Virus record (IMG/VR): IMGVR_UViG_3300042890_005556 | Source: a virus | Direction: 5' to 3' (one strand) | DNA: 64,000 nucleotides | In this document: positions 1,263 through 34,033 of the stretch, piece after piece | Layout: the number at the start of each line of letters is the position of its first letter | How positions within the stretch are numbered: position 1 is the first letter of the stretch | Made by a program: the position numbers and the translations under genes | The notes under the pieces: generated by a model | What the model saw: the letters and a program-made list of their open reading frames with translations, nothing else | What the model was told of the DNA's origin: nothing | Database searches by the model: none

Positions 1263-1286
1263 TATTGTAATAAGTCGGAGGAACCC

Positions 1287-1610: not shown

Positions 1611-1622
1611 GGAGTCAATATA

Positions 1623-2933: not shown

Positions 2934-3024
2934 CGCACCATTGTGTCTAGGTTAATAATATCTTGTCGTTTATTTATATTTCTTGTAAAAAAATATTGTG
3001 CCTTTTCCTTTAACGGAGGTGTAA

Positions 3025-3906: not shown

Positions 3907-3907
3907 T

Positions 3908-3942
3908 TGGGTTCTGCAGTATTATTAACTGCAGGAGACCCA
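3908..3942 (+). promoter_or_regulatory. Stem-loop occluding the Shine-Dalgarno of the gp46-like gene
   Basis: TGGGTTCTGCAGT-attatta-ACTGCAGGAGACCCA; AGGAG lies in the 3' arm and the ATG is at 3944. Confidence 0.55.
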
Positions 3943-3943
3943 C

Positions 3944-5728: not shown

Positions 5729-5753
5729 AAATAAAGTAACTAGTGAGAAAAAT

Positions 5754-6296: not shown

Positions 6297-6384
6297 ATAT
6301 CAAGAACGGATATTTTATCCTATCTTGTATATACCGAATACAAGCCAGCTTCGCAAGTACACCTCGTCATAGAAGATCAAAAAG

Positions 6385-7272: not shown

Positions 7273-7337
7273 CCGGCTCTCCACCAAACGGTAACTATAA
7301 TTAGCGCCTATATTCTTTGCATACAAATGGGAATGAT

Positions 7338-9182
7338 ATGATAAACATAGAATCAGATCCAATTGACTTGGATACTATCCTCAAAGCTTTCAAAGAACTA
7401 GCCAGTAATATAAACATTAATGATGACAGACAAAAATTAGAAGATGATGTGGTAATATTATGTCAGACTTTCAGAGCTATAAAAGTAACTGGTTATGAAG
7501 ACGGTGTAAGAGAAGCTTATCAAGAAGTATGCGAAAAATTAGCAGACACGATATGTGATAGCCGATTCGATTTTGATAGACATTTCTGCTTTAAAATGCA
7601 AGAGTATGGTAATGTCTTCTCGAATCTCGTAGCATCATGCGACCTAAAAAACACAGACAAGTATATCGAAAGATTAAGAAATGACGATCAAAAACACAGC
7701 ATTTACAAAAGACTGTTTCTAACATCGTCTAGAAACAAGCAGGAGTACATTAAAGAGGTAGCTGACCACTACCACACAGATATACCGCTATACAACAATT
7801 GGGCGTCTAATTTATTCCAAATAATATCATGCGGCCTTCTGAATATGCACGTAAGAGATAATTTAATATTCTTAAGCAATTACATAATTGCAAACGAGTT
7901 CAAATGGGCTGCAGCAATCGGCGACGTGTATAACCATTCAGCATACACAGATAACCCATTAGAAAGACGATTAAAGGAACATATAAACGACCAATGCAAA
8001 GAACTTTTTCATCCAGACTTTGTACCCATAAACAATAAGACTAAAAGAATAGGCATTTTTACAGAAAATTTTTTTCAAGGTCACAGCACCCACAGGACAG
8101 TGGCGAAATACATTCATGCTTTGGCTGATAGATACGAATTAATATTGCTGCACGGTGAACGATACAGGGTATTACCGCTGAACGTTAAATCCGATGAGAG
8201 AATATTCAAGGAAATTCATCAAATAAGCATTTTTGGGACTTACGATCCATTTGAAATGTCCATAGTTGGGCCACAGAATCTAAAGCTGGACATATTGATA
8301 TACCCAGACTGTGCATGCGACGCATTATCACTAATAATGGCAAATATGCGGCTTGCACCAGCGCAGATGGCTATGACAGGAATGCCCACTAGCACATTTA
8401 ATAGCGAAATAGATTACTTTATATCAGGCAGAGACGTAGAATGCCTTGAAAAAATCGATGACAATTATAACGAAAGAGTCGTTTGCTTGCCGGGTTTAGG
8501 GGCGATCCATACGAGACACACACCTATAAAAGAATTCACAAAGCCAGAACCCAAAGACGACATTCTAATTGGCGGCTCATGGGTATGCCCCAAAACGCAC
8601 CACTTTATGGCTTCCGCATTAGGTGAAGCGCTTAACAGAGTGAATAAAAAATGCACATTGAGAGTGTTCGCAGGGCTAGCTTGGTTTACAGCCAACAGAG
8701 TATACGTTCCATATATCGATGAACTTGGAAAATATTTCAACGACAACATCACTCTTAGTATTATTGAAGGTGCAGAAGGGCACAAATATAACGACTTGAT
8801 GGCAGAAGTAGATTTAGCTGTTGACAGTTACCCTTGGGGAGGTTCTAACACGGTCAGCGACTGTATCCAATTAAATAAACCAGTTGTAGTTTGGCAAGGC
8901 GACAAATGGTATAATAGAATCGGTCCAGCTATGTTAAGACGCATAGGTCTAGAGAGTCTAATAGCTAAAAACAGAACAGAATATATTGATAAGACTATCA
9001 GATTAGTGGAAGATGATGCTTGGAGAATAGAGCTAAGCGAGCTGATTAGCGAGCATAACAAATCGGGACTTGTGGACTCCGAAATCTACAATAGTCAGAA
9101 AGGTGTAGAAGCATTTTCTACATTTATAGATAACGTGATAAATGGTAACATACAACCAGGAAAAGAGCCGCTTTTATTGTGA
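7338..9182 (+). CDS. GT41 protein glycosyltransferase (HMW1C/SPINDLY/OGT-like catalytic domain)
   Basis: HSTHRT, LDILIYPD, MRLAPAQ...G.PTST..IDYFISG, LPGLG and DSYPWGGSNT motifs. Confidence 0.85.
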   Translation: MINIESDPIDLDTILKAFKELASNININDDRQKLEDDVVILCQTFRAIKVTGYEDGVREAYQEVCEKLADTICDSRFDFDRHFCFKMQEYGNVFSNLVASCDLKNTDKYIERLRNDDQKHSIYKRLFLTSSRNKQEYIKEVADHYHTDIPLYNNWASNLFQIISCGLLNMHVRDNLIFLSNYIIANEFKWAAAIGDVYNHSAYTDNPLERRLKEHINDQCKELFHPDFVPINNKTKRIGIFTENFFQGHSTHRTVAKYIHALADRYELILLHGERYRVLPLNVKSDERIFKEIHQISIFGTYDPFEMSIVGPQNLKLDILIYPDCACDALSLIMANMRLAPAQMAMTGMPTSTFNSEIDYFISGRDVECLEKIDDNYNERVVCLPGLGAIHTRHTPIKEFTKPEPKDDILIGGSWVCPKTHHFMASALGEALNRVNKKCTLRVFAGLAWFTANRVYVPYIDELGKYFNDNITLSIIEGAEGHKYNDLMAEVDLAVDSYPWGGSNTVSDCIQLNKPVVVWQGDKWYNRIGPAMLRRIGLESLIAKNRTEYIDKTIRLVEDDAWRIELSELISEHNKSGLVDSEIYNSQKGVEAFSTFIDNVINGNIQPGKEPLLL

Positions 9183-10060
9183 AAATACTTTTCATCGCAG
9201 ATCCAATAGAAAGCATAAAGAAATATAGTTTCATAAATGACTATATGAGAGATCTGCTATACCATGGATTATTAGAAACTGAAGATGTGGAAATAGAATG
9301 CACAAAACCAATTATACCAGCTCACAAACAGTATAAAAGCCAAATAAGCCCAGAGTTATTATGGGGAAAAGGATTTACAGCATCATTTCTTATAGACGAC
9401 GCGCCAAAAATAGCAGAAGACGTTGAAAATAAAATCAAAGACAAACATTATGATCTCATACTCTATGCTGATTCGAGAACATGTCTAGACTACTATAGAA
9501 TATGTAATGATGTTTATGATAGTGACCGAATTTTTATGGTTGATGGTCGTGATGATAACGAAGTGGCTAGTACCGCTGACAAGCATTTATATTTCAAACG
9601 GGAGCTGGTTGACGATAGCCGATGTGAACCTATTTCATTTGCGATCCCCGAGTCTAAAATCTTTTCTGATGATGTAATGAAAGCGATGCATATTGCTACG
9701 ATTATACCAGGAGACATGTCAACATACATTTTCGATACTGAGAGCAGTTACTATAATGACTATCAAATGTCTATGTTTGGATTAACCCGTAAGAAAATGG
9801 GCTGGGATTGCATGAGACATTATGAGATAATAGCTAATAGGTGTGTGCCTGTTTTTGCGGATATAGCTGAGTGCCCTAAAAAGACATTAGTAAACTTTCC
9901 TAAAGAGCTGTGTCTTGAAGCTTTGGATTTATATCATAACTTTAAAAATAATGATGCATGTCACGAGAGATATTTTAATATAGAGCTCCAGTTCATAAAT
10001 CATTTGATTAAGCATCAAACCACAAAAGCTTTGGCATCTTACGTGTTATCGTTTTCGTAA
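9179..10060 (+). CDS. Putative glycosyltransferase (exostosin-like C-terminus)
   Basis: YFKREL and IIPGD.STY.F..E..YY.DY..S.F..T.KK.GWDC.RHYEI...C.P pattern, seen in viral GT-like proteins. Confidence 0.55.
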   Translation: MKILFIADPIESIKKYSFINDYMRDLLYHGLLETEDVEIECTKPIIPAHKQYKSQISPELLWGKGFTASFLIDDAPKIAEDVENKIKDKHYDLILYADSRTCLDYYRICNDVYDSDRIFMVDGRDDNEVASTADKHLYFKRELVDDSRCEPISFAIPESKIFSDDVMKAMHIATIIPGDMSTYIFDTESSYYNDYQMSMFGLTRKKMGWDCMRHYEIIANRCVPVFADIAECPKKTLVNFPKELCLEALDLYHNFKNNDACHERYFNIELQFINHLIKHQTTKALASYVLSFS

Positions 10061-10806
10061 AATATGGCGTTTTGGGACGTATAGTCTATATCGCTGGCTA
10101 TGTCGACTAATATTTTTGGTCTTACTATGTCGGATTCTACATTAATATCTTTTAAATATGTTCGGAATATTGTTTCAGGGTGATATATCCCGCACATTCT
10201 GGTGTAGTATCCGAATGTTGGGAAAAGATTGCTATATTTGTCCATCAGTTCAGATGGTCCAAATGCAAACTGGTCGTTAATGCCTCCCATCCAATCTCTA
10301 TAGATCGGCACGTTTATTTTATGAAGATCATATTGGTCTAGCGGGCTCATTACCTTAATTTCTGAGTCATATCGCATACGGATTACGACGTCGAATTTCA
10401 TTGCGTTTTCGTTTTCGTAATATGATTTTAAAGCATTTGCTGCTCTGATTGAGTAGTGCATGCTTATTGGGCCTATGTTTGAGCCTATAGAGTGTAGGTT
10501 AATGTCTTCTACGCTGGTTATCTCTAAGAAATGCGGTAGCAGTTCCATTGTAACTTGATCGTAGTCTTCTATGGCTTGGTATATTGGGTTATAGAGCTGG
10601 GCTATTTGGTGTGTGTTGAGTTCTACGTTGGTCAGGTATTCGTGTTGCTTGTGTTTTGACCAGCTGTCTTCTATCAATCTGAGGGGGTTAATATTGTATG
10701 TGTGTAGGAATATTTTTGGATTGTAGTCTGAAAAATAGTCTTGTATGCTTTTTAGGCTGTTTTGGTAGTATTTTGTTGTGCCTGAGATGCAGATTGCTAT
10801 TTGCAT
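10039..10806 (-). CDS. Putative glycosyltransferase-like protein
   Basis: IAICISG, FDVVIRMRYD, GINDQFAFG and HPE motifs of a common viral GT-A-like family. Confidence 0.6.
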   Translation of the reverse strand: MQIAICISGTTKYYQNSLKSIQDYFSDYNPKIFLHTYNINPLRLIEDSWSKHKQHEYLTNVELNTHQIAQLYNPIYQAIEDYDQVTMELLPHFLEITSVEDINLHSIGSNIGPISMHYSIRAANALKSYYENENAMKFDVVIRMRYDSEIKVMSPLDQYDLHKINVPIYRDWMGGINDQFAFGPSELMDKYSNLFPTFGYYTRMCGIYHPETIFRTYLKDINVESDIVRPKILVDIASDIDYTSQNAIFYENDNT

Positions 10807-10818
10807 GTTTTGCCCTTT

Positions 10819-10862
10819 ATTATAAGTAAAGAGCCCTTTTGTGTGGGCTCTTTACTTATAAT
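10819..10862. terminator. Perfect 18-bp inverted repeat, likely terminator
   Basis: ATTATAAGTAAAGAGCCC-ttttgtgt-GGGCTCTTTACTTATAAT, immediately after the stop of the 10866-12155 gene. Confidence 0.7.
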
Positions 10863-10865
10863 TAT

Positions 10866-12155
10866 TCAGGGAGTGAGACCGTGTGATAGGCAGACTAGTT
10901 TTATTTGGTCTCTAAAGTCATTTACTGATCTTATGGTGATTCCAAAGAATTCGGCCATGTGGTTGATTTTTGGGTCACCAGCTCCAAATCTGTCGCTGAA
11001 TGATTCATATACTTCACCGTTTTGGATCAGTATATCGTAAACTTGTTGACAAAGTCCCTTTGGCAGGGATTTCCGTATGGTAGACAAAGCATCTTCGGCT
11101 TCTATTACTGAAACGTGATCTTCCAAGATCATTTTCTGGCCCTCAACAAAGCGGTGGCCTATCTGGTCTAGAGTAGAACCACCTTCGTCCTCGGTGACAC
11201 TTAGTTGATTGTCCAGAACAGTTACGTGTTCTGGGCGAATCACTACTGCTTCAAGCTCATCCTGACAAGAAGACTCATCCGTGATTTGGATAGATATCGT
11301 ATTGTTATCGATACCTAATAATACGCCATGTCTTATTGCTTTTTCTTTGATTTTAGAAAATTCAATAGAGAATTCTGGTGGCGTTTGCATTCCTAAAATA
11401 TGGAACGCATAGTGACTATCTTCCTTGGCACAATTGTAATCAATGTTCATCTGGGAGCATGTACTTGCTAGCTCTTCGGAGATGATGTAGTCTGGGCGAC
11501 CGCTGATCAATTGTGGTACCTTTTTATGTTCTTGGCGTTTGTTTTCTTTTAAGTGTTGTCTGAAGTAATTCCAGGCGAATTCACCAAAGAATTTCTTGAG
11601 CTGCTTTGGGTCGTTGACGATTGCTTCTGGGTTCTCATATTTTCTCTCGCCAGGGATTGGCTGTATTGGCGATATGATTTTTGATCCTGAGTACCCTTCT
11701 GCTAGAAGCAAGCGGTAGTCGTCGTAGTCAATGAATGTTTTTTCGGTGGTGAGGTTGCCTTTTTCGGCTATTTTGACTTTATTACAGCTAGGGCAACATA
11801 TGAGTTGCTGGTCTATGCTCTTGGCTTTACCTCTTTTTGTCAGATATTGTGTCTGCTGGCAACTTTCGCATTTAAATGTGTAGTCGCGGTGGTAAAAGAG
11901 GTTTATCACTCCGCGCCATATTGCTATCTGATATTCTAGCTCGGCTGCTGTAGAGTCGTCGGCGTAGTCTCCGCCAATTGTCACCCTGAATTGTTTCATT
12001 ATCTCTGCTCTATGTCTTACCATTTCTTTATGATTTGACACATATGTCACCATGTCATGCACTTTTTGTCGTTCGTCTTCTGAGATTTGCGACATGGTGA
12101 TGTTTACCAATGAGCCTCTGAGATATAGCTTTGGCATTTGACGAACAATCGGCAT
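10866..12155 (-). CDS. Sigma70-like factor with inserted Cys4 zinc module
   Basis: ELEYQIAIWRG (region 2.2-like), CESC...CPSC insert, FAWNYFRQ (2.3/2.4-like), C-terminal HTH NHMAEFFGITIRSV; GGAGG RBS. Confidence 0.55.
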   Translation of the reverse strand: MPIVRQMPKLYLRGSLVNITMSQISEDERQKVHDMVTYVSNHKEMVRHRAEIMKQFRVTIGGDYADDSTAAELEYQIAIWRGVINLFYHRDYTFKCESCQQTQYLTKRGKAKSIDQQLICCPSCNKVKIAEKGNLTTEKTFIDYDDYRLLLAEGYSGSKIISPIQPIPGERKYENPEAIVNDPKQLKKFFGEFAWNYFRQHLKENKRQEHKKVPQLISGRPDYIISEELASTCSQMNIDYNCAKEDSHYAFHILGMQTPPEFSIEFSKIKEKAIRHGVLLGIDNNTISIQITDESSCQDELEAVVIRPEHVTVLDNQLSVTEDEGGSTLDQIGHRFVEGQKMILEDHVSVIEAEDALSTIRKSLPKGLCQQVYDILIQNGEVYESFSDRFGAGDPKINHMAEFFGITIRSVNDFRDQIKLVCLSHGLTP

Positions 12156-12230
12156 TTGTTACCTCCATGGTTGTGTGATTACCACTGCCGTATTTTAGAA
12201 CAGACAATCCTTTTTGGCAGGAGATCCGCC

Positions 12231-12992
12231 ATGGCTCAGTATTGCGACACGAAGAAACTCGAAAAGGTCTGGTTTAACTGGCTTCTATCCAAATCAGCAC
12301 CCACGCTGGAGCCATACAGGAAAGCGGGTGTGTTGTGGACTAAAGCCATAGGTCTCGTCGATGTGAAGGGTGAGGTGATTGTCAAAGGTGGTAAGACCTT
12401 TAAAAGTCCTACACATCCTATCAGATCGCACTGTATCTTGTCAAGATATCCGTTCTTCTTTACCACTTTTAATGGTAAGCCACAAGAACTTGCGTCCCAA
12501 ATACATTATAACGAAGATGGTGATTATACGACAACCCCCATTGCACTTTCAGAGATAGAAATAGTAAAAACCAAGCCGGAAATAAAAGACATAGAACAAA
12601 TACTACTAAAAGATGGCTACATCCTAGATGCAGAAACAGGAAAAAGCTGGGAGTCCATGTTAATAGACATCAATAAAATGTGCCTCGGAATAGCATCTAA
12701 ATTCCATCAAAAAACAGCAGAAGAATTGAATGATTTAGCTAACGAAGCATTATTGCAAGTAGCTAACAAATTATCTACGGATAGGCTGGTATATACTCCC
12801 GGAAGGGCACCAGTATTCAATTTATTAACCACCACTATACATCGATGCATGTTTTCAATTATGAATAAAAGGAAAAATCAAAGAGAAGGGCTTAACAGAT
12901 TACTGCAGGACGCACAATCTGGGTCATTACCTCAAACTAACAGAAGCCTGAGACTCCAAACATTCACGACGAGAAAACATGAAAATCGTTAG
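12231..12992 (+). CDS. T4 gp55-like late sigma factor
   Basis: QYCDTKKL N-terminus and KMCLGIASKF, DLANEALLQ, APVFNLLTTTIHRC..S..NKRK parallel gp55 region-2 motifs; AGGAG RBS before ATG 12231. Confidence 0.6.
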   Translation: MAQYCDTKKLEKVWFNWLLSKSAPTLEPYRKAGVLWTKAIGLVDVKGEVIVKGGKTFKSPTHPIRSHCILSRYPFFFTTFNGKPQELASQIHYNEDGDYTTTPIALSEIEIVKTKPEIKDIEQILLKDGYILDAETGKSWESMLIDINKMCLGIASKFHQKTAEELNDLANEALLQVANKLSTDRLVYTPGRAPVFNLLTTTIHRCMFSIMNKRKNQREGLNRLLQDAQSGSLPQTNRSLRLQTFTTRKHENR

Positions 12993-13920
12993 TAACAAAC
13001 ACATTGTGCCAGCAGTAACAAAAAAACCAATAGACAATATTAAAATAGTTGTTAGTCCCCATAATAAAACTATAAGCACACTAAATGCTTATAATCAATC
13101 AGCCCATATGAAAGTAATCCCAGCACAAATAGCACCGCAGATCAAAAACAAAGCAGTCATTGATAAAAGCCTAGTAAAAAGAACTCAAAACCCAAATAAA
13201 CCAAAACCACCAGCATCGGTAACTTACGCTTCCGGCGAAGCACCAATCGAAAGCATACCAAAAATATACGGTATAAAAGACATAGGTAAAGGTAAGACAT
13301 TAGTAGTCATAGCAAACGGCCCAAGTATAAACGAAGTTGAATTGGAGAGGCTAAAAGACAAGCCAGGCATCGACACTCTATCAATAAACAGACCGGACCC
13401 ACGGGTCTGGCCAACCACATATTGGTCATTTTACGACCAATCACAGCTTGTGCGACACGAAGACCTGTATAATTATTATGAAGGCATAACCTTTCTAAGC
13501 ACAGCCATCAAGAGAGACAAGGCCAGAAGCATAAAGTTTAAAAATTTTGGCAAAAAGCAATTTAGCAGAGACTTAACAAAGGGATTATGTATAGGACGCA
13601 CAAGCTGCTATGCTGCTATGCAACTTGCTTTATGGATGGATTACGATAAGATATTCTTTTTTGGGGTTGATATGCACCCAGATGGTATTGACGGCAAGCT
13701 CCATTTCTACGGGACAAATCCCGACGTAGACCCTGATATTAGGAAAAAACGATTTAACTCAGAAGCAGAATACTTCGAATTTGCCGCAGATAACATGGAA
13801 TACCAAGAGAGAAAGAGATTTCACTTTTGTTCGTCTTACCTGACATGGCCCTTTAAATCGCGTTTCAATTACTTAGATCACAAGACTGCTATAGACGTGA
13901 TTTTAGGGTCAATGCTATGA
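12979..13920 (+). CDS. DUF115/Maf/GT42-like Rossmann protein with basic Pro-rich N-terminus
   Basis: VIANGPS, SINR and TS.YAAMQLA.WM.Y.KI.FFGVD motifs. Confidence 0.7.
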   Translation: MKIVSNKHIVPAVTKKPIDNIKIVVSPHNKTISTLNAYNQSAHMKVIPAQIAPQIKNKAVIDKSLVKRTQNPNKPKPPASVTYASGEAPIESIPKIYGIKDIGKGKTLVVIANGPSINEVELERLKDKPGIDTLSINRPDPRVWPTTYWSFYDQSQLVRHEDLYNYYEGITFLSTAIKRDKARSIKFKNFGKKQFSRDLTKGLCIGRTSCYAAMQLALWMDYDKIFFFGVDMHPDGIDGKLHFYGTNPDVDPDIRKKRFNSEAEYFEFAADNMEYQERKRFHFCSSYLTWPFKSRFNYLDHKTAIDVILGSML

Positions 13921-13944
13921 TTCAACCTAATGTATTATAAAACC

Positions 13945-14316
13945 ATGAGATACTACATAGCATCTAGTTTAGACAATGTTGCCAATGTTCGTAACGCCAT
14001 TATGAGGCTGACCGAAGCTGGGTTTAGTGTCACACATGATTGGACAAGACATGGCAGAATCACAGACCCATCACAGTATCAAGCCATTGGCGAAGCAGAG
14101 TACCAAGGCGTGATTGATGCAGATTTCATCGTGTTTTTTATGCCGACTAGGTATGGAAGCCATGTTGAATTCGGTATAGCACTAGCCTCTAACAAACCGA
14201 TTTATATGGTCACAAACGGCGTGGAATTTGAAGAAAAAACATTCTATCATCTACCATCCGTACATAGATACAGCGATTTAAATGAACTATTGCGCGAATG
14301 GGGAATAGACAAATGA
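13945..14316 (+). CDS. Nucleoside 2-deoxyribosyltransferase / dNMP N-glycosidase family protein
   Basis: YIASS (catalytic Tyr), E..GV..AD and GSHVEFG.A.A..KP (catalytic Glu). Alternative start at 13930. Confidence 0.8.
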   Translation: MRYYIASSLDNVANVRNAIMRLTEAGFSVTHDWTRHGRITDPSQYQAIGEAEYQGVIDADFIVFFMPTRYGSHVEFGIALASNKPIYMVTNGVEFEEKTFYHLPSVHRYSDLNELLREWGIDK

Positions 14317-15017
14317 GTGGAAGCGTATCAACTAAGCTCGAATTAGACGTAATGCAAGTCAATGAATTGCTTGAAGCAAGCGAGCTAATGTCCCAACATA
14401 CGCTACCAGCCATGGTCATACATTCTGGCTTGGCCCCAGACGCTTACGCAGCACGGATGAGAGTCAGAGGCAGGTACAAGATAATCATCCCTATTGATTG
14501 GCCAAAAGGCGAAAATTTTTCTAACTTGAAATTCAGGGGACTAAGCAAGCAAGCACTGGAAGCTGATGGGTTCGAGATAATGGTCACGCCAGGTAAGACC
14601 CTTCTAGATACAAAAAATGAGATCAACGTTCTGACTGAATTCATCAGAAACTTCCTGGGGGAATATGTGGAGGTTCGGTTTGTAATAGGCAATACTATTA
14701 AAACCGACGAGGAAATTGAAGTAATATGCAATGCCTTGTTAGGTATGAGAAACCCCACATTGTTGCGTAGCGATACTATCTTGAAAGTACAGCAAAATGT
14801 CATCAGCGCAGAGTCGCATCTAGCCTTTGTTAATAAGCTACGCGGCTTTGGTCTTCCCACACCTATAAAGCTATCGGGGAACATGAACAACCTGAAATCT
14901 ATCGCTTCAGCGCCAGCAGTTTTCAGGTATGCTGTCAATGTAACACAAGCCAAGAATATTATTCGAGAGATCTTGCAGCAGCCCAGTGAATTGAAGGAAA
15001 TCCTGTCCGACGTTTGA
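14313..15017 (+). CDS. DeoC (deoxyribose-phosphate aldolase)-like TIM barrel, divergent
   Basis: IDWPKG (cf. IGFPLG), ADGFEIMV, VRFVI, LRSDT (cf. IKTSTG), IKLSGN (cf. VKASGG); ATGA overlap with the upstream gene. Confidence 0.6.
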   Translation: MSGSVSTKLELDVMQVNELLEASELMSQHTLPAMVIHSGLAPDAYAARMRVRGRYKIIIPIDWPKGENFSNLKFRGLSKQALEADGFEIMVTPGKTLLDTKNEINVLTEFIRNFLGEYVEVRFVIGNTIKTDEEIEVICNALLGMRNPTLLRSDTILKVQQNVISAESHLAFVNKLRGFGLPTPIKLSGNMNNLKSIASAPAVFRYAVNVTQAKNIIREILQQPSELKEILSDV

Positions 15018-15027
15018 GAATGACAAT

Positions 15028-15417
15028 ATGATACACGATCATCTAATGGAAGCAATCAGGCAAGATGCCGACCTATTGACTAAATCCGATGCGTGGCTCG
15101 AAGAAGAGAAGAATTACTTCACAGAGCAGATGCGCAAATCCATAGAAGAGCTAAAACCCATCCTCTTAGCTATAGCTATAAAACAAAAATTGCAGCAGCA
15201 GAACATGGTGCCTAGGCAGAAGTTCATAAGAGGCAGCACAGGCCAGATAGAGAATGTTGTGATTGACTTCTGTAAGCTACCAGAAGCACTGAGAGATATG
15301 CTCAATAACGGCAGAGATACCTTAGATCAGTTGATAGCAGCTGGCAATATTGCCACATGGCAGATAGACGGGTATGACGTTAATACCTGCCTCCAAACGG
15401 CACCGAAAGGGATATAA
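15028..15417 (+). CDS. Hypothetical protein, translationally coupled to purZ
   Basis: TAATG stop/start overlap at 15415-15419. Confidence 0.7.
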   Translation: MIHDHLMEAIRQDADLLTKSDAWLEEEKNYFTEQMRKSIEELKPILLAIAIKQKLQQQNMVPRQKFIRGSTGQIENVVIDFCKLPEALRDMLNNGRDTLDQLIAAGNIATWQIDGYDVNTCLQTAPKGI

Positions 15418-16517
15418 TGCAAAACGGCAAGCTCAATATAGTCACAGACGGACAGCACGGTAGCACAGGCAAGGGTCTAATCAACGCATATCTAGCCGAT
15501 AAACACCGACCAGAAATACTCAGCACGACCAATATGGCCAACGCTGGCCACACCGCAGTCAACGAAAACGGCGAACCGTTCATAGCAAAAGCATTACCGT
15601 CATCAGCGGTCCTAAACAAATGGCGAGAGGGCTATAAACCGACAGTATTCGTAGGAGCTTCATCTGCTTTTGATCTGCAACAGCTACTAAAAGAATGGGA
15701 AGAATGCGACAAGCCATTCACACTAATCCATCAAAGAGCGGGTGTCATTACACAAGAGCAAAAAGAAAGAGAATCCGGAGCATCAGGCACAAAGCACGTT
15801 GCTAGCACCATGCAAGGATGTGGAGCATTTCTAGCAGATAAAGTCATGCGAAGAACAGATTTAAAACTCGCTAGAGATTATGAAGAGCTTCAACAATTCA
15901 TGGCCATCAAAGAAGCACATACATGGCTAAAGGCACAGCTCGAAAGCTACGGTACAATTCTCCATGAAGGAAGCCAAGGATTCAGCTTGGATATAAGCCA
16001 CGGTAGTCACTATCCAGAGTGTACAAGCCGCAGCACCACTGCTATTCAAAACCTTGCTGACCTTGGTCTTAACCACAAGCAAGTTGGTGATGTGTACGTG
16101 GTTTTCCGGCCATACCCGATCAGAGTCGGCAATGTCTATGAAAATGGGGTAGAAGTAGGCAACAGTGGTGGTTGTTATGGCGACAACCAAGAGACTACTT
16201 GGGAAGCAATAGCCGATGCTGCAGGTGCACCGCCAGAGATTAAAGCCAAGGAGCTTACAACTGTCACAAAGCGACTTCGAAGGGTCTTCACGTTTAGCAT
16301 GCAGCAAATCACCGAAGCTGCTGCAGCTAACGGTGCATCATATCTTGCGCTGAATTTTGCTAACTATATTGACTGGACTTGCTATGGCACCAACGACAAG
16401 GCAAAATTGTCAAGCAAGATTTGGGATTTCATTCATTCAGTACAAGAGCAAACAGGCGTCAAGGTGGGGCTTGTTGGTACGGGTCCTCAGATAAACCACG
16501 TAATTGACCTAAGATGA
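15417..16517 (+). CDS. purZ: PurZ, N6-succino-2-amino-2'-deoxyadenylate synthase (adenylosuccinate synthetase family)
   Basis: DGQHGSTGKG (Ser where PurA has the GDEGKG Asp), NMANAGHT, EGSQGFSL, YP.CTSR, RPYPIRVG, ELTTVTKRLRRVFTFS, and LNFANY in place of PurA's TKLD. Confidence 0.88.
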   Translation: MQNGKLNIVTDGQHGSTGKGLINAYLADKHRPEILSTTNMANAGHTAVNENGEPFIAKALPSSAVLNKWREGYKPTVFVGASSAFDLQQLLKEWEECDKPFTLIHQRAGVITQEQKERESGASGTKHVASTMQGCGAFLADKVMRRTDLKLARDYEELQQFMAIKEAHTWLKAQLESYGTILHEGSQGFSLDISHGSHYPECTSRSTTAIQNLADLGLNHKQVGDVYVVFRPYPIRVGNVYENGVEVGNSGGCYGDNQETTWEAIADAAGAPPEIKAKELTTVTKRLRRVFTFSMQQITEAAAANGASYLALNFANYIDWTCYGTNDKAKLSSKIWDFIHSVQEQTGVKVGLVGTGPQINHVIDLR

Positions 16518-17293
16518 TCAACCTATTCAAAGTCGCAATTTACACAGACGAAGCGGGGTCTACCCTCGCTTCGTCTAAGAGTATTATATCAGAATTAAAT
16601 ATTCCAAATGTCATTTTTAGAAACGTAGACAATAGGAATATTCTAAAATATGACGAAACTCGAATAAAGGCTGTCCTCAAAGAGTTCGAGGATTTTACCG
16701 TAGCTGGTCTGTCGACAGATATCAGAATAGATGATATGTTGTCAGATGATCAGATTTTCGATTTACGGAAGAAGATTTACCTTATTAAACCAGTATTTGT
16801 CAGATTCGGGTGGGCTGGAGAGAAATACTCTACGGAATTTATTGCTAGAATAATAGATATGAGTATAGAGAGCAATTTTATACCGGTTATTGAGTATGAG
16901 CATACGCATTTTAATTCTCCAAAAATCATAAAGGCACAGGACTGGGTCAACCTTTTGTCATTATCGAAGCGATTGAGAGTGAATTTTGATCCTGTTCAGT
17001 ATCTTATGCGGGTAAGAACTGATCCTATAGAGACGGTTTATGTTCCGCTTAGGAATCAAGTGAGCGTGATCGATGTAAGAGATTATAAGATTGGCGTTGG
17101 GGCTAAGACGATTGGTTACGGGTCTATTGATTGGGCTGCGTTGTTAAAGAGACTATATTCCGATAAATATAACGGTTGGTTGGCTATTAAGCCGTCTCTG
17201 GGTATCATGCATGGTGATACTCTTGGTAGAGAGATGGTTTTTTCCCATGCTTTCAGCAATTTCAAAGAAACATTGGAGGAAGCGTGTCAATAA
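16514..17293 (+). CDS. Xylose-isomerase/AP-endonuclease-2-like TIM barrel, divergent
   Basis: YTDEAG, R.V...NI, VNFDP, IDVRD and G.G.IDW..LL..L....YNGWLAI.P pattern; ATGA overlap with purZ. Confidence 0.7.
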   Translation: MINLFKVAIYTDEAGSTLASSKSIISELNIPNVIFRNVDNRNILKYDETRIKAVLKEFEDFTVAGLSTDIRIDDMLSDDQIFDLRKKIYLIKPVFVRFGWAGEKYSTEFIARIIDMSIESNFIPVIEYEHTHFNSPKIIKAQDWVNLLSLSKRLRVNFDPVQYLMRVRTDPIETVYVPLRNQVSVIDVRDYKIGVGAKTIGYGSIDWAALLKRLYSDKYNGWLAIKPSLGIMHGDTLGREMVFSHAFSNFKETLEEACQ

Positions 17294-17499
17294 ATCTTAA
17301 TGAGACGACAGCTGCTATTAGAAAAGCTGGAGCCGTCAATGTTCGCGTTGTCCCTATGAAGGGGCAAACAATCGATGGTGAGCACCAAATTGAGATTCAG
17401 AACGTGCCAGGGACTTGGCAGACTATTTTGACTGGTATTAAAAAACCTATGGCTGAGAGCATCGTGCGTGACGCCACAAACAGGGTATTGTTAGGATAA
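17284..17499 (+). CDS. Small hypothetical protein
   Basis: GGAGG RBS, GTG start, operon position. Confidence 0.65.
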   Translation: MSINLNETTAAIRKAGAVNVRVVPMKGQTIDGEHQIEIQNVPGTWQTILTGIKKPMAESIVRDATNRVLLG

Positions 17500-17503
17500 C
17501 CTA

Positions 17504-17926
17504 ATGGCTGGCTCAGACGTATTCGAAGTCGCACGCTACAAAATCGGAGATGTGGCGTGGTGGGTGAATTTAACAGCCAAGGATGACCCACAAGAAGTCC
17601 CTGAAAAAGACGAATGGATGAAAAAGCATCATCCTAAGGTCTTATTCGAACGCGGTTTATACAAGTCCCTGTGGAAGACGACTGCTGCTTTGCCTAAATT
17701 AGAGAAGACGGATTTTCTCAGTATAATGCATATATTGACGTGTGAGATGAAAATAAGCGAATTCATTGTCTCAAGTATCGCAAGAAGCAACGATACCGGC
17801 GAATTCTTTTATTCTAACTTAAACACCGAATGGCTTCCAGAGTCCAGCATGTTTGACACTAAAGAGGCAGCTGCGAAGGAAAGAAAAAGGATCATAGGGT
17901 TGGTGAAAAAATGGTGTGATTCTTAA
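17504..17926 (+). CDS. Hypothetical protein
   Basis: 140-aa ORF with AGGA RBS. Confidence 0.7.
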   Translation: MAGSDVFEVARYKIGDVAWWVNLTAKDDPQEVPEKDEWMKKHHPKVLFERGLYKSLWKTTAALPKLEKTDFLSIMHILTCEMKISEFIVSSIARSNDTGEFFYSNLNTEWLPESSMFDTKEAAAKERKRIIGLVKKWCDS

Positions 17927-17963
17927 CATTATTCAAAACTAAAGTATAAGAAGAGGACAAATC

Positions 17964-20900
17964 ATGGCAACAGATCCGTTTGCGAATATAGGTTTTAGGG
18001 AAAACTTCTCCCAAGCTTACTACACAGAAATAATTATAGCTAGGAATAAAAAAAGCATAAGATTTGCTTCTTCCACTCCTACAGTAACAAACAGCTACCG
18101 CCAACTGATGGGTGGTAATTTATACAGAGTAGCGGAGTTACTAAGTATAACAGGACCAAAACAGCCCGTAGCCATAGAAAATAAACTACAATATAAAAAA
18201 GACCAGCCATACTCACTCTATGATCAAGGCCAAATAAGCGACGAATTCAGAATACAAAACGTCGACCCTACCCTCTCGTTAGAGAACAGAGAAAGCTATT
18301 GGGCAAGAGTGAGTAGCCCATTAGGGAGAGAGTGGGCTGCCTACTACGCTGGAACAGATGCTAAAATAGGCTACCTCGCAAACTTCATAGACAGAAACTT
18401 AGATGACTTCACAGGCACTAATTTTGCAGGATTTGTATCTGGAACACTTAATAATGATAACGATAAGCCCAACCTATATGACACTGTTAAGATAGGAAAC
18501 ATATTCGGCTCCACAGTTCAAGGTAGCCAAACTGCATCTGTGTCTGTTGAGCCAGGCATGTACAAGAGCTTCATCTCGTGCAAAGTCACACAAGACACGA
18601 GATATTTTGACCCTACAGGCGCAGAAATAATCCAAACTGCTGAATCAGGTGATTTATTCGCCGACGAGTTCGTGTTAAACTTTTATATATTCCCAGGTTA
18701 TCACACATTTTATTATGGCTCTTGGAAGATAACAATCGAGCCGACTAATACGACAGGAACGCATAGGGTATTCATCCAGCATGCCAGATACTATACCTCT
18801 GCTGAATACAATATGCAGCCAATTGTGAGGAAATTTAGTGCAGACTTTGATTGGGATGGGACTTTAAGCGAGTTTAATCTTATAACTATTAAGTACCTGT
18901 TCACTCCAAGACCTCAGGGGAGTGCGTCGACTGGCACAATTAACATTGGTAATTCTACTAGTAAAGTTAGTCTATTTGTAAATGCTGTTCCTGTCTTCGC
19001 AAGTGGTAGTGATTCGATATGGCCCCCATCTTATCCAAAAGTCTACCGTGGTTCAAGCGGTGCGGGATTGCCTAGTTATACACAGAAACCATATATTGAC
19101 CTAAAGATGGCCCCAGATAACACGCCTGTCTTCATAGTATGGGATAATGCAGTACCTTTCGGGATCACAAAAAGCGAGTTTGCATTTATTCTTATAACTG
19201 ATAAGTTAGTGGATCTTAAAGGTCTTTATACTCACCTCATTAGATTCGAAAGGATAATGCCTAATCTCACAATTGAGACGACCCCTAACCCAGTTGTTCC
19301 TCCAACACCCCCAGTAGGCGGTATTACTTCGAAATTTTACAACAGGGCTACTTATAGTCTTGCCCCAGCGGTCTTGATGGAATTAAACAAGATACTCTTA
19401 GATTTCATGTTGTCCCAGCCAAATATTAGGATCTCTAGCGGGCCACTTGAATCAGATCCAATTCTTAATAGAATGCTAGCCGCCGCAAGCACCACCAAAA
19501 AATATTCATCAGCGATAGAATCTGACAAGAACGTTTTAGATCTCTTAAGAGAGCCAGTCTTGGTAGTAGATGATACGAATTCACTTCTACCATATATCTT
19601 GCTAGAATATGGACTGCCCAATGACAACGTCGGGCAACTACGAGTTAAAATAACAGAAATAAAATCACCAAATGTAATCGATGAAGTATCATCAGAAATT
19701 GAGCTACAGGGCTACGCAGAGTATATTATTAAAACCATTACCACAGACAGCTGGACAGCTGGCACGGTGACGTTGTCTACGAATTTCAGATTTTATGTCG
19801 ATGATAGTGGAATGTACGAGCCAAAATTAGATCCGTATATCGTCAACAATCCTAATCAGCTGACTCTTAATGAGTTTGGACAAGTATATGTTGAGAGTAT
19901 GCGCGTTACTTGGGCTTTTCCAAGGGACGTGAACAGTCCTTTTGTTATTCCAGATAGCTTTTTTACTAGGTATAACAGGGTGGTGGATGTAGTAACCCAG
20001 GAAGTTGAAATAGCGAAGCTCTTTGATACGGAGAGAGACTTATTACCAAATGGGTTGCCGGTCGATCTAAATATGTCTAATAAGCCGGGCACGACCCCTC
20101 CAATACCACCTAACCCTGGAACAACTCCAACACTATATTATAATCGAGCTGAATGGAGTGTACAGCCTGCTAAGGAAGCGGAAATAGAAGAAGTCCTAAA
20201 ACAATTCATGATTAGTAATCAAGTGATAACTAGCGCGGATTCGCGTTTTAGAAATATATTGAATACCGCTTTGTTGACTGATTATAGAGTGATCAGAACA
20301 TTCGAAATGTCATTAGGGTTTGGAGAACAGATTCTTGATGTAGTTGATACACCTCTTGCTACTAGTAGTAATGAAGTTGAAATATTTTATGCACCAACTG
20401 ATTCAACTTTTGTTGATCATTCAAAAACTAGCGGGGTGCAATTACGCGCCAGAATACCAATAAATGACCCTAATAGAAATAATTCTCAAATTGACCTATC
20501 TAGCACAGCTAAATTTACCTTCGACATACCAGCAAATTTCGACAGTCCATCTGGTGATCTGTCCGAATATGGTGCTGGGACCATTGAAATATTCGTAGAT
20601 TTTGTTTTGAGGCAGGCAGATGTTGCGAGACCGGATATCGGCAGTGCTAACCCTTATATCGTTGGGAATAACAACGAATTTATACTTAGCTCATCTTACA
20701 GATTGGGAGCGTTACGCGCTACTATTACTGCTGATATCGGTTTAGGTACTGATTTCATTGACGAGTTTGATATTAATTTAGAACCAATAAAACTCGATCA
20801 GTTCGGGGCTGGAACTTTAGTGGACATAACGCCTTTCATTACTGGTGGTGTTCCAGTTTCCATAAATATGTCAAATGCTCCAGGCACAGTCGGAATTGGT

Positions 20901-23900
20901 GTGCCAGGTGGTACACCATTACCGCCATCTGGTGGGTCATTATCACCATCCAAGAATTATACCGCAACATTCACCCTGGCAGACCAGCCATTTAAAATAT
21001 TCGAGATAGACAATTTAAAAGGGCTGTTAAATTTTTACAGTTTCCAAGACACTCTAAACTACACATTATATGATCTTCTTCTAACCCCATATTCTCAGAA
21101 AGTACCCATTTCGAGATACGCGTCTGACGTTTTCAAGCTAGCCCTAATCGAACAGGGTAAGATACCTGGACACCCATCAGATCAGACTGCAGGATTTTTA
21201 AAAGCGTATACTGCCTATTTTAATGACCAGGATTGTGTGCTACCGGAAGGCAGTCCGCTAGACCCCTCTTGCCAGGCATTGACCATTGAATATATCATAG
21301 CACCTAAAGAGACGAATAAGGTATTAACATTAGGCACAAATCTCCTGAAAATGGGCATGGTTATTAATCTAGGGTGTAATGGTGGTGCCAATTGCGTTGT
21401 TGTTAGCGGCAAACAGATTCCTAGAGTGAATGGTGTGCCTACGGCCCAGTTAAGTTATGATTTTACCATGGAGATGATAGTAACAGAAGACACATCAGGT
21501 GTGACGCCACCGACGAGTCCAAGTATAATCGTGACATATAATCTTTCAGGGCCCATAGCGCTCTGGGGTTTTTTAATAGGACAATACTCTCTTATTAATG
21601 TTTCTAGATACACTGGTGGTGCATACAATAAAGTCATAGCGTATGATGAAGCGACTATGAAATCAGGCACAAATTTTCTAGTAAAAGCTTTCGGCACCGA
21701 TTCACCACTATATGAAGCCGGTAACATAGCGCCAATTAAATTGTCTGCTAGAGGGAAGAGGCTTTGGGGTTCCGATCCGGACGATTTTACTAATGACTAC
21801 ACACAAATCGACTTTTTTGTGACAGCTTACATAGACACAAGATTTACAAAAACACTAACTGGCTCGTTAATTAGTGACCTAGATGCTCCCAATACAACAC
21901 GAGCAGCAATAGTTTATGTGATAGAGCCTGTAACCGTACCATTTCCAAGATTCGACGGCACGATAGTTCCCTCTAAAAAATTACCAACAGTTACCTATAC
22001 TGATTACACTAATGTATTAATGACCAAGCGTTTTCCCTCTGACGGCGGAGACGGCGGAGACGGCGGAGACGGCGGAGATACGACGGTCAAGAAGTACAAC
22101 GGTAAATGGAATTTGGGTCCAGATTTCATTAGAGCTATAGAAAACACATACATCGAATTTCTGCAAGTACCCACATTTAATTGGCGACTTGACAATGTGG
22201 CGTCAAAGGGCTTAGGAAGCTATGATAAGCTTTTGTGGGAATTAGTAAGTGGAGGTGTCAATCCAATCGTCAATAACTGGCAGACTGCCGGATACCCAAC
22301 TGGAGTTGGTCTGCAAAGACCAATAGACTCTAGATCCGTCCAATATTGGATGGAAGACGTATTAAAATACAACGGCGTCGGAACCGGACCGACCGGAGCA
22401 CCAGTCACACTAGCTTACTCATCCAGCTTCCAAGGATCTAATTTAAAATTAACAGTTTATATGAATATAGCAGTTAGAGACATAAGATTAGAAGCTGAAA
22501 AGTCAACTAGTGTAACATTGGACATCTCTAACATAATAGGCGAGTTGTCTGAAGGTGGAATAAATAAAACCTATCTGTTTGCGAATAGAAGTACTTCATT
22601 TACCATATTAGTAGACGTATACGAAGCGATGCAAACATTCAGTGCTCCGCAAGAAATGATGCTCGCACAGACAGTTCCCGACAGTTACATCTGGCAGCCA
22701 CCCAAATACATTATAGTAAACAGTGACAGCCTCAAATACAATGATGGCCTAAACGACGTATACTACTTCAGAGACGGCTACCAAACCGCTCTAAGACAGA
22801 CCTACTCATTCGTTGGCACAAGAACATCACAAAACGACGTAATAGCAACATATAGGCACGGCGATGCCAGCTCATACGACCCAGAAACTACAAACTACGA
22901 CGTAGTGGTTGGCGGCTTCGACTTGGTATACCATAAAGGCACACCCAACACTCTAACTTTACTACCGATCGAAATAATAGAGTCTAAAACCAAAAAGAAA
23001 TTTGTGTGCTTTGGCAGCATCAGAGAAGTAGGAAATATATTAAACGCCTCAATAAAATCAAACGTTGTGATGACATTCATAACAGATAACGGATCGACAT
23101 CCGACACAGACGGAGCATACTGGGTATACGACAATACCTGGAAAGAGTGGTCACATACAATTCCGATCAATACCGGCGATGAGCTAAACTTATACTGCTA
23201 CAGCTGTCTCACTAATCAGGTTGGTACGCTAGAAACCAACATCAATATAATCACCAAATTCAACGTTAAACCAACTCCCAATAACCCACCGCCATCAGTA
23301 GATCCCACCGAAATATTCCCAGCAGAATTTTCTTACGACCAATTAATCCAAAAAGTACCGGCACTACCAGTTGTATACCCCCCAGGCTTCCCAAATCCAT
23401 CAGTATATCGGTTTGAATACCCTAAAACGATGGCAGTAAAGGCCAAAAGCTCAACAGATACATATGAGTTCTTTCTAGAATCTATTGACAGCACACAACG
23501 CATTGCTACTTATAAGCTGTATGAATTCGTGAACAACGAACTGACGGTAGGTGGTTTTACTGTAGAATACACACCACACGTATCATTCAAGCTAAGTAAA
23601 GTAGACGTGTACTCAGCAGATTTAGATAGAGATTTTGAATGCTTTGGAGTAATACACATAATCTATGACAATGACGGTGCATTATTGTCGGCTGATACGT
23701 GGGAAATAATACCCACATTTGAAGACCCTAATGATTTCGCTAACTGGTATTTGACTGTCGTACAAGACCCGTTGACTGGTGGTAACCATTTTAACACTTA
23801 TTGCAACGATGGCACAAATTTTAAATGCTCAGCAAATAACTTGAAATTCGTGATGCGTATAGACGCGAATTTTAAGCATTATGCTCCAGAACCTCCAGCA

Positions 23901-26900
23901 ATCATTGTCGCTCCACCCGTATCAGGTCCGCCAATACCATTGCCCATATACAGCACCGGTTATAACGTTGCTTCAGACAGGCAGATTGCATTCATTGGTG
24001 AGCCTGATAGTAACTGGAAAATCACCAGTTTTATTACGGGTCCAGAAACTGCTCCTACACATTATTGGAAACTAAATAATGGCTTAACTGATAGTGTGGG
24101 TGACTTACCATTTGTAGCACATCCAGCTATGAGAGTTGAACAGGGACAAAGCCGACCGCGATTCGCACGCATCGCAGATTTCACCTACGGGGTGGGTGCT
24201 GTTTGGTCGAATATACAGACGCAAACGACTCCTGAGAATGCTATTTATCCTAATAATCCTGGAGTAGTCAGTGGCAGTACTACTATAGGAAAAGGCATAG
24301 AACACGGTTTATATGCTTATGTGGCTTCACAGACCTCAAACCGAATTTTGGATTCAAATGCTTGGACGATAACTGGATGGCTAAAAATGCCTATTAAACC
24401 ATATGTCGCCAATATAGACAATGCTGGCGGCATATTAGAAGAAATGGTATTTAGTATTTCCCCATTCACACCTTTGCCACTTCAGCCCCCATCAGTAACC
24501 AGTTCATATGTCTTTGGTCCTGAACTCATTGTCGGTAGTGCCCCTAGGATATCAGTTTATGTGATCTACGCTTTTAGAGACTCAACACCTGCTGAGGTGT
24601 ATGGTGAAAGATTCTTTAAGAAAGCCGGCCATATTTATGTTTATTTTAAATCAACCCGCACCAGCGAACCGACTTACGCAGGAAAAGAGACTGGGCTGAA
24701 TGCAGTATTAGTAGATGAGGCTGGTGACATCATCTATAGGGATTTATTAACAGGAGACATAGCGTCTGAAGAGGGTACTACATCAAGAGCCTGTAATTTC
24801 CTTGAAATACCTGGACCAGATCTAATAAGAGCGAATGTCTGGTCATTTATATCAATAAAAAAACAAGAAGCATTTGATGACAGGCTGATAATAAGTATAA
24901 ATGGCCGAGATTACACAGCGATATTTCAGTCTGCCATCGTCACAGATGAGCTGTTAAAGAAAGTTAATTTCATCCAGGCAATGGCCCCGCTAGACGATTT
25001 AAGAACATACGACTCAGAGCTCTCAGACTTAGAATTAAAACTGATATCGCGAGTCGGTAGCGCAGAAGGCGGGGTAGTACCACGAGAATACAGCCCCGGT
25101 GGAGTGGTATCAGGGGTCATATCAAGCCAAGTTTTTGCTTACGACCACTTTAACCCTTCAGAAGAGATCCAGCCATACTGGTGGCCAGCCGGATATACCT
25201 CTGGTAGCACCATCGTGCCAGATCGCACAAACCTCTACCAACAATACAATGCAAGATGGGTGTCGCCACCGCCTAAGCTGGGCATTGACGCATCACCAGT
25301 AGCAAAATCCTTCCATTACGCCACCGAATTTGATCTTACAGGTATTACTCTCAATACAGTCAAGATATCGTTTCTATGCTCTGGTGACGATAGAATAGTT
25401 GATATAATTGTTAACGGCACGAGCACAGGCTATAACAACATCTCAGAGATCGGCGGGCTGCCAGCTACTAATACGACAGCATATGACAACTTAAGGTACA
25501 GGAACCTATGGGACGTGAAGCTACCGACCGGTAGTGGCCATCTCTTCGTTCAAACAATTAATACGATCGATATAGTGGTAGAAAACCAAGCTATCACAGA
25601 TCTTTCAGTGGCTACTAACCCAACTGGGTTATACGTGTACGTTTACGAGAAGACCGGTGTTCCATTACCCATACTGGAAGACCCAAGAGCAATCATTTTA
25701 GACATAGTCGATACTGGCCACAATAAGATATTGAATCAACCAATACCTATAGGTTCGTCAGATAGCAATTGGGTGATAGAAAAAGTAGAAAGATCAGAAA
25801 CCGCTCCTTCTCACTATTGGAAGTTTAATAATAGCCTAAATGATCTTGCTCCAGCTGTTGGCTCAACACCATTACCATTTGCGCAATACCTGGTACAGTC
25901 TACTTTTAAAGCTGGTGTGGTAGTCGGTAATGCTGGAAATCCGCAAAACACCGGGGTAGTTCAGAACGCAGTATTTCCTTTTATTCCTGGTTCACCAACT
26001 TCTGAATATGGCAAGCACATCCTTGTTATATCTGAAGGAGGTACAAATAGTAAGCTCATTAATTCATCAGTAGGCTGGACGATTACCGGCTGGATTAAAA
26101 TTCCATTATACGATGGATCAATACCGTCACTCGCGGAATTAACAACAATATCTGCTATTTCTCTTGACGTCTTTGCTGCTAACACGCCTACCATGAAGTT
26201 TAAGTTTTGTTACTTTGGTGCTGGCAATAGAAAAACAGGAGCTCTCTATTTAGACTTTACTTATGGCGAATTGGATAGTAACAGAGCTATGACAATACCT
26301 GACCAATCCACCAACTTCATCGAGATAATACCGAATCAAGGGGCGTTCTCTCAGAACGAATGGGTTTTCTTTTCAATACGCAGAACTCCACGGACTACCG
26401 CTCCTTCTGGAGCTATATCTGATGGCACAATAATATTAACAATCAACGGTATTGATTACACTATTAAAGAACCATATATCCCAGGAGCCAGCTCGACTTT
26501 CGACACTATGAGCTGGATTGATTTTAGTTGCCCGGCAGATGATCTAAGAATATACGGAAATAAGGTACTGTCTAACTCTGAACTTAAATTCATTTCCAAA
26601 TACGATTTCACATCAATTATACCCGGTGAAAATGACCACGCCACTGCGGAAGGTGTACCGAGAGAATACTTGAACACATACATTACCGCGCCTTCCCCCG
26701 TCTTCGCCTACGATTACGTAAACCAATACAGCCCAGCACAACCATACTGGTGGCCACAAGCAGTTCCCAACCAAGCCTCACTCTACGGAGAATACAAAGC
26801 ACGATGGGTATCGCCACCATCAACCACAGGCATTAACATAAGCAGATTAGAAAACACAGGATTCCACTACTATAAAACAACATTCAACCTAGCGAATATC

Positions 26901-32329: not shown

Positions 32330-34033
<1,704 letters not shown>

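Follow-up and report, generated by a model that had tools for sequence, protein, structure and literature searches.

The purZ-like gene and its phylogenetic position

A 64-kb stretch of viral DNA (IMG/VR record IMGVR_UViG_3300042890_005556, 64,000 nucleotides in full and called the window below) carries at positions 15417-16517 (+) an intact open reading frame (ORF) of 366 amino acids (aa), the product of which is a short enzyme of the PurA/PurZ family. In the DNA of some phages, adenine (A) is replaced by 2-aminoadenine, the Z base. The known tool-kit for this replacement consists of PurZ or PurZ0, an enzyme that clears dATP and, usually, a selective PolA polymerase. To our knowledge, small sipho- and podoviruses are the only phages for which Z-containing DNA has been demonstrated, and a PurZ from jumbo or huge phages did not come up in full-text literature searches. 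A 2026 survey in Nucleic Acids Research (PMC12884076) dealt with the viruses of NCBI, among which the jumbo-phage clade described here does not occur, and distinguished no types other than PurZ and PurZ0.

A reading of the locus made without database searches (the sequence-only reading) had named three motifs, and all of them are present in the intact ORF: GSTGKG at aa 15-20, TTVTKRLRRVF (named as TTVTK..RRVF) at aa 281-291 and LNFANY at aa 312-317. A Shine-Dalgarno-like GAAAGGGA and a TAATG overlap, joining the stop codon of the upstream ORF to the start codon of the gene, lie at 15405-15419 (+). At 16514-16517 (+), the stop codon and the start codon of the gene that follows share an ATGA, as in translational coupling; both features were read directly from the sequence. 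The product matched Pfam family PF00709 (E 3e-29) and PHROG 1211, named '2-aminooxy adenylosuccinate synthetase' (E 4e-61), and its best family match was the NCBIfam PurZ model NF038379 (E 2e-69); the motif match is therefore not due to chance. In phmmer searches against solved structures, the short PurA of P. horikoshii (E 1e-41) and the PurZ of S-2L and phiVC8 (1e-40 for both) matched almost equally well, and PurZ0 (7vf6, E 1e-18) and E. coli PurA (E 1e-11) far more weakly. The AlphaFold2 (AF2) model of the protein (predicted local distance difference test, pLDDT, 96; predicted template-modelling score 0.94) superposed equally on archaeal PurA, PurZ and PurZ0, with template-modelling (TM) scores of 0.81-0.84, and the fold therefore does not discriminate among them.

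Residues were compared in an alignment of 121 sequences, which included the PurZ of phiVC8 and S-2L, the PurZ0 of phages Wayne and Ghobes and, as PurA rows, E. coli PurA, haloarchaeal long PurA and 16 short archaeal PurAs (550-588 bits on model NF003295, all with GDEGKG). The roles of the contact residues in S-2L and phiVC8 PurZ were taken from PMC8342488 and from a preprint (bioRxiv 10.1101/2025.10.22.683976). In the P-loop, the position of PurA Asp13 is occupied by Asp in all 19 sampled PurAs and by Ser16 in the window protein, corresponding to S23 of S-2L and S14 of phiVC8; PurZ0 and a number of cellular proteins, which we call Ser-type together with PurZ, also have Ser. At the site of the guanine 2-amino pocket, the window protein has Thr281 (T273 in S-2L, T262 in phiVC8) and 19 of 19 PurAs have Gly, with Thr shared by PurZ0 and the cellular Ser-types except for a few cellular forms that have Ser. 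The motif contacting the donor base reads N313-F314-A315-N316-Y317 in the window protein, N-F-A-Q-Y in S-2L and N-F-C-N-Y in phiVC8 (N294-F295-C296-N297-Y298), as against T-K-L-D in E. coli PurA and T-G-x-D in archaeal PurA; the Asp is kept in PurZ0 and the cellular Ser-types. Finally, two insertions after the I-R-V-G loop, on the deoxyribose side of the pocket, are common to the window protein and the phiVC8/S-2L enzymes and absent from PurZ0, cellular Ser-types and PurA. The alignment bears out what the sequence-only reading had stated of the reference enzymes: E. coli PurA has both the Asp of GDEGKG and T-K-L-D, and the PurZ of phiVC8 and S-2L have Ser and N-F-x-N/Q-Y. Among the 120 protein clusters closest to the window protein, Ser was found in all 118 readable at this site, Thr in all 120 and NF[A/V]NY in all 110 readable ones. 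At the sites that discriminate PurZ from PurA (Ser, Thr, the adenine-pocket motif and the loop insertions), the window protein is, as judged from its sequence, a PurZ.

Two trees were calculated, a quick one of 121 rows and a careful one of 68 rows (LG+C20+F+G4 with posterior mean site frequencies, PMSF; support given as ultrafast bootstrap, UFBoot/SH-like approximate likelihood ratio test, SH-aLRT). Both were rooted on long PurA, the PurA outgroups coming from a genome search and the E. coli record. In the 68-row tree, the short archaeal PurAs formed one clade (99/94) and all Ser-type proteins another (100/99), within which the cellular GSEGKG forms and PurZ0 were basal. A clade of 36 rows (96/95), from which PurZ0 is excluded, united the canonical PurZ groups with a clade of 23 rows (100/98), in which the jumbo-phage sequences are joined by a GSSGKG sister group. 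The window sequence, paired with cluster P0003 (99/98), belongs to the latter. In a phylogeny with PurA, PurZ and PurZ0, which the sequence-only reading had proposed as a check, the protein thus groups with characterised PurZ and apart from the other two, and it is therefore bracketed by lineages that both use dGMP and Asp. It lies outside the phiVC8/S-2L group itself. By its placement in the tree, the protein is a PurZ in the broad sense, belonging to a new, previously uncharacterised subclade, which comprises more than 120 metagenomic clusters, several of them from contigs of 150-408 kb.

Compared with the PurZ of phiVC8 and S-2L (PDB 6FM1, 6FKO, 7ODX), the window protein has the same fold (TM 0.81-0.82) at 33-35% identity, the P-loop D-x-Q-x-G-S-T-G-K-G, the Thr of T-T-V-T-K, the loop insertions and the N-F-x-N-Y adenine-pocket motif, the last identical to phiVC8 at four of five positions. 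It differs from them in longer insertions at about aa 239-278, in having His14 instead of Phe/Tyr and in its separate subclade; their genes belong to phages of 38-67 kb with PolA or PrimPol, whereas the window clade is found in phages of 150-400 kb with a split DnaE, and neither datZ nor mazZ stands beside the window gene. With PurZ0 (Arthrobacter phage Wayne and Gordonia phage Ghobes; PDB 7VF6), which is accompanied by DutZ, DmtZ and DUF5664, it shares the character of a short Ser-type synthetase, and it, too, is accompanied by a gene of the nucleoside 2-deoxyribosyltransferase (NDT) superfamily and, elsewhere in the genome, by one of the dUTPase family. However, identity to PurZ0 is only 26-29%, and PurZ0 has GSEAKG, keeps the guanine-specifying Asp and branches outside the window clade. 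Short archaeal PurA (P. horikoshii PH0438, PDB 2D7U/5K7X) is similar in its short architecture, fold and phmmer score, but it has GDEGKG, Gly in place of Thr281, a T-G-x-D GTP pocket and a clade of its own.

One or two inserts with LAGLIDADG homing endonucleases, which account for lengths of 750-1,200 aa, were seen in five members of the clade (P0122, P0123, P0127, P0133 and P0135; 42-62% identity), three of which (P0123, P0133 and P0135) contain intein splicing domains. Inteins in purZ appear to have no earlier description, and their occurrence in clade members suggests a gene under strong selection.

The colinear block and its giant-phage genomes

The purZ-like gene is part of a block that is strictly colinear in 14 relatives and runs, all on the plus strand, from an ORF at 12138 through an MptE-like gene, an NDT-like gene, an ORF named TIM1, a small ORF, purZ and a gene named TIM2 to two further small ORFs. 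The NDT-like gene (13930-14316), of the nucleoside 2-deoxyribosyltransferase / dNMP N-glycosidase-like superfamily, matched PF05014 with E 6e-6, which is under the cut-off, and a PF05014 match was present in all five large relatives. Two independent findings connect enzymes of the NDT family with dZ: DmtZ of PurZ0 phages is a dAMP hydrolase and transferase (PMC12884076), and a dA-preferring NDT was described from dZ-enriched aquatic contigs (metaGPA preprint, bioRxiv 10.1101/2025.10.22.683976). The NDT-like gene is a candidate for a dA-purging enzyme.

TIM1 (14298-15017) overlaps the NDT-like gene by 19 nt. It had no match in Pfam, PHROG, NCBIfam, PDB sequences, PDB profiles or the atlas, and was not detected by the DeoC Pfam model or, in deposited phages, by tblastn. 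The small ORF coupled to the start of purZ (15028-15417, 129 aa) has homologs in 9 of the 14 relatives; no Pfam, PHROG or other family match was found for it, and the atlas search was empty as well. TIM2 (16514-17293), coupled to the stop of purZ, encodes a xylose-isomerase-like sugar(-phosphate) isomerase/epimerase barrel (PF01261, E 6e-7; AF2 pLDDT 88.7), and the top Foldseek matches of its model were UlaE, ketose 3-epimerases and Art22 at TM about 0.7. At the margins of the block are a conserved ORF with no assigned family (12138-12992), an MptE/DUF115- and WaaZ-like gene (12979-13920), probably for a glycosyltransferase-type protein, and the two small conserved ORFs that end it (17284-17499 and 17504-17926), which had no family matches.

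Homologs 54-62% identical to the window protein were found at 13 IMG/VR loci, on contigs of 30-356 kb. One of these relatives (G001) is a complete genome of 355,825 bp with terminal repeats, and 12 of the 120 closest protein clusters come from contigs longer than 100 kb, the longest reaching 408 kb. The sequence-only reading had spoken of a T4-like jumbo phage. These sizes agree with the jumbo part of this description, and the T4-like part was not supported: the best cultured homologs of the SbcC/gp46-like protein are only 27% identical and belong to SPO1-like and Staphylococcus phages, and the polymerase, proposed for inspection in the same reading, is a split DnaE in the relatives (family-B polymerase and T4 structural genes were not searched for). 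Megablast of window positions 1-20000 against deposited phages gave no match. At the protein level, 201 deposited phage records have a homolog, all below 60% identity and the best at 39.7%; the Ser-type carriers among the 100 records listed are all of 83 kb or less, in line with the smaller size that the sequence-only reading had ascribed to characterised Z phages. About 18 studies from 2017-2025 have lake and freshwater metagenomes that contain the module, and in one run the contig depth of a 95-99% similar strain came to about 100. The PurZ subclade is characteristic of uncultured freshwater phages of 150-400 kb: it is distinct, abundant, conserved and fixed in giant lake phages which lack the known helper genes, have a non-canonical helper set and use a DnaE-type polymerase.

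Besides the block, the window encodes SbcCD-like nuclease subunits, PhoH, ThyX, dUTPase, a primase and glycosyltransferases. Directly after the block, a single ORF of 4,599 aa (17964-31763, +) contains long internal repeat segments, and partial homologs are likewise placed in several relatives. It is followed by a NucS/EndoMS-like endonuclease gene (31748-32383, +; N- and C-terminal domains, E about 1e-14), whose cellular homologs cut mismatched DNA. At 38568-39909 (+), thyX (PF02511, E 5e-37) overlaps the gene for a dUTPase that is extended by about 75-100 aa at its N-terminus. This dUTPase is weakly similar to DutZ of Ghobes (E 5e-9); its adjacency to ThyX suggests an ordinary dTMP route. 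Sugar-related genes at 7317-9182, 36953-37930, 41082-41858 and 44539-45651 encode a GT41-like protein, an NAD-dependent epimerase/dehydratase, an HPAT-like arabinosyltransferase and a GT1-family glycosyltransferase, and they may serve to glycosylate virion proteins or DNA. As for polymerases, a short ORF (about 400 aa) similar to family A, its match confined to the C-terminal half of the PolA domain, was seen in four of five relatives (G001-G004). In the complete genome it lies 8 kb from purZ (L157:1465-2643, -), and it has no counterpart in the window.

Proposed synthesis of Z and competing explanations

We consider it probable that the locus is best explained by a functional PurZ-type enzyme with operon-supported synthesis of Z, and with Z reaching the DNA. 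Of the parts of this explanation, the PurZ chemistry of the enzyme seems the safest and may be held with good confidence, given the residues and the phylogeny; substantial Z in virion DNA is favoured only slightly over its absence. The proposal of the sequence-only reading, that this phage may replace A by 2-aminoadenine in part or wholly, is thereby supported in part. Substrates, roles of the neighbours and the route of Z into DNA would be as follows. The enzyme would act as a succino-amino-deoxyadenylate synthase, in which ATP or dATP, both used by PurZ (PMC8342488), phosphorylates O6 of dGMP and L-aspartate then displaces the phosphate to give the succino-amino nucleotide dSMP. A sentence in PMC12884076 that names the donors for PurZ0 and PurZ as, respectively, 'ATP and GTP' was not used, as it conflicts with PMC8342488 and with the residue pattern. 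A PurB-type lyase would convert dSMP into dZMP; it would be supplied by the host in most members of the clade and encoded by the phage in at least one relative, and host kinases would yield dZTP, which the split DnaE would place opposite T. The dGMP may come straight from the breakdown of host DNA, and MazZ would therefore be unnecessary. The NDT-like enzyme might remove dA at the level of the monophosphate or the nucleoside, and the barrels might dispose of the released sugar phosphate.

A PurB-like gene was not found in the 64 kb of the window. In the closest IMG/VR relative (G004, PurZ 62% identical), a PurB-type lyase is encoded (TIGR00928, E 7e-82), which fits succino-adduct chemistry; this lyase (L160:1288-2337, -, 349 aa) apparently lacks the C-terminal domain and lies about 113 kb from purZ. 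As the window covers only 64 kb of its genome, absence on the scale of a genome can be assessed only in the relatives, chiefly in the complete G001, and there no clear ribonucleotide reductase (RNR), guanylate kinase, tRNA-guanine transglycosylase (TGT)/DpdA or PurB was found. A 7-deazaguanine route was considered and rejected: the matches to the QueC model are weak PP-loop matches, with no TGT/DpdA.

Several observations weigh against Z synthesis by a PurZ supported in this way. Neither DatZ (PF12917, YfbR-like HD) nor MazG (PF03819) nor DUF550 (PF04447) was detected by Pfam models in G001 and four partial relatives, the same models finding authentic DatZ (E 1e-14 and 7e-12) and MazZ (E 2e-11) as positive controls. 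Phmmer with DatZ, MazZ, DUF5664, DmtZ and DpoZ references likewise found none in the window, in G001 or at the 13 loci. The only HD protein of G001 was examined as a DatZ and ruled out, being YhaM/HDIG-like. In all, no DatZ, MazG, DUF550, DUF5664 or DpoZ was seen in the window, in G001 or next to purZ at the 13 loci. With the canonical helpers absent, these phages have no known means of keeping dATP out. As for the NDT-like protein, it is not a demonstrable ortholog of DmtZ, to which its similarity is not significant (BLAST E 0.11), and it had no tblastn match in deposited phages. The synthetase itself scored 234.2 bits on the PurZ model NF038379, for which the cut-off is 300 and the controls reached 397 (phiVC8 PurZ), 350 (S-2L PurZ) and 367 bits (Wayne PurZ0); by the curated hidden Markov model (HMM) criterion, it is not recognised as PurZ. 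On the archaeal-type PurA model NF003295 it scored 212 bits (cut-off 368), and the PurA model TIGR00184 gave 124 bits (cut-off 396). His14 replaces the aromatic F12 of phiVC8 and Y21 of S-2L (most of the clade has Trp), and Arg286 occupies the position of PurA R303, so that selectivity for deoxyribose is not certain. Finally, evidence from RNA is negligible: the metatranscriptome run X20 yielded four 151-nt contigs at depth 2, none of them on purZ.

Since neither a dATPase nor a selective polymerase was found, it is a serious possibility, albeit an unlikely one in our estimate, that a true PurZ brings about only partial or conditional substitution, either as mixed A/Z DNA or with dZTP mainly blunting restriction at some sites. 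The lack of DatZ, MazZ, DUF550, DUF5664 and DpoZ and the generic split DnaE agree with this, and so does the finding that purZ alone in E. coli gives lower substitution than the full Z-cluster (PMC8342488). On the other hand, an NDT-family gene is conserved in the operon of every relative, in other Z systems such enzymes remove dA species (PMC12884076; metaGPA preprint), and the natural Z phages measured so far have all been reported as fully substituted (PMC13128860). A PurZ fold with another task, acting on GMP, dIMP or another 6-oxopurine nucleotide or making a product that the neighbouring barrels process beyond plain Z, appears improbable. The sub-threshold score, the separate subclade, the departures from characterised PurZ at His14 and Arg286 and conserved neighbours of unassigned chemistry (TIM1 without a family, TIM2 sugar-isomerase-like) might be read in this sense. 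Yet wherever PurZ contacts the guanine 2-amino group, the aspartate or the adenine of ATP, the window protein has the PurZ residues, and these do not vary within the clade; the lack of DpdA/TGT leaves no 7-deazaguanine route, and the bracketing PurZ0 and PurZ lineages use dGMP.

That the enzyme is of the PurZ0 type, with a guanine nucleotide as phosphate donor, would agree with the NDT-family and dUTPase-family genes, both being helpers in PurZ0 phages. We consider this very improbable: GSEAKG and the retained Asp of PurZ0 stand against GSTGKG and Asn316, the 36-row clade shuts PurZ0 out, the phmmer match to 7vf6 is far weaker than those to PurZ, and the dUTPase is placed with ThyX in an ordinary dTMP route. 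Hardly credible at all is an ordinary PurA serving as an auxiliary metabolic gene that raises the synthesis of AMP from IMP. Although the window protein scores as well on P. horikoshii PurA as on PurZ, in both sequence and fold, the changes of Asp13 to Ser, of Gly to Thr and of T-K-L-D to N-F-A-N argue against it, and so does its position outside the GDEGKG PurA clades (100/99); the real phage PurA of LR756503.1 keeps GDEGKG.

The operon-supported synthesis of Z might be extended to freshwater phages of 150-400 kb with fully ZTGC genomes and a third, independently assembled Z pathway. Here, an NDT-family glycosidase would destroy dAMP/dA, two novel barrels would drain the deoxyribose phosphate, a new PurZ subfamily would convert dGMP from the breakdown of host DNA, and a C-family split DnaE would replicate the genome with neither a dATPase nor a Z-selective PolA. 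In this complete form the proposal is speculative, and we rather doubt it. If Z is present in the DNA, the size range of non-canonical genomes would rise about five-fold, and fully ZTGC genomes would far exceed in size any other non-canonical genome known. It would also mean a third evolutionary solution for the exclusion of adenine, and it would make an NDT variant and two barrels available as new enzymes for producing Z-DNA. If Z is not present in the DNA, the signature residues of PurZ alone over-predict Z genomes, which bears on the more than 2000 viruses currently predicted by homology to be Z phages (PMC13128860).

Ser-type relatives in other genomes

The best match among deposited phages is a gene of Bacillus phage vB_BpsS-140 (MH884512; L018:11956-13077) annotated as 'purA'. 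Its product resembles the window protein (39.7% identity) in being Ser-type, in the adenine-type N-F-A-N-Y and in a long insertion; it differs in its GSEGKG P-loop, in forming a clade of its own outside both PurZ0 and the 36-row PurZ group (100/98) and in its origin from a 55-kb siphovirus. The protein falls under both curated cut-offs, and the phage also has adk and dut. Phage vB_BpsS-140 may hold another uncharacterised Z-type system.

Ser-type short PurA-like genes were also found at 392 prokaryote loci (Acidobacteriota, Binatia, DPANN archaea and others; e.g. L046-L125) with the pattern [QM]xGSEGKGK, which selects Ser-type genes only and not PurA. These GSEGKG proteins retain the guanine-specifying Asp and take a basal position in the tree. 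In the four archaeal genomes searched (G007-G010, one of Halobacteriota and three of DPANN), the Ser-type gene was the only PF00709 homolog found. In contrast to the Ser-type gene of the window, the 735-kb uncultured phage LR756503.1 (L045) encodes a long-type, true PurA with GDEGKG.

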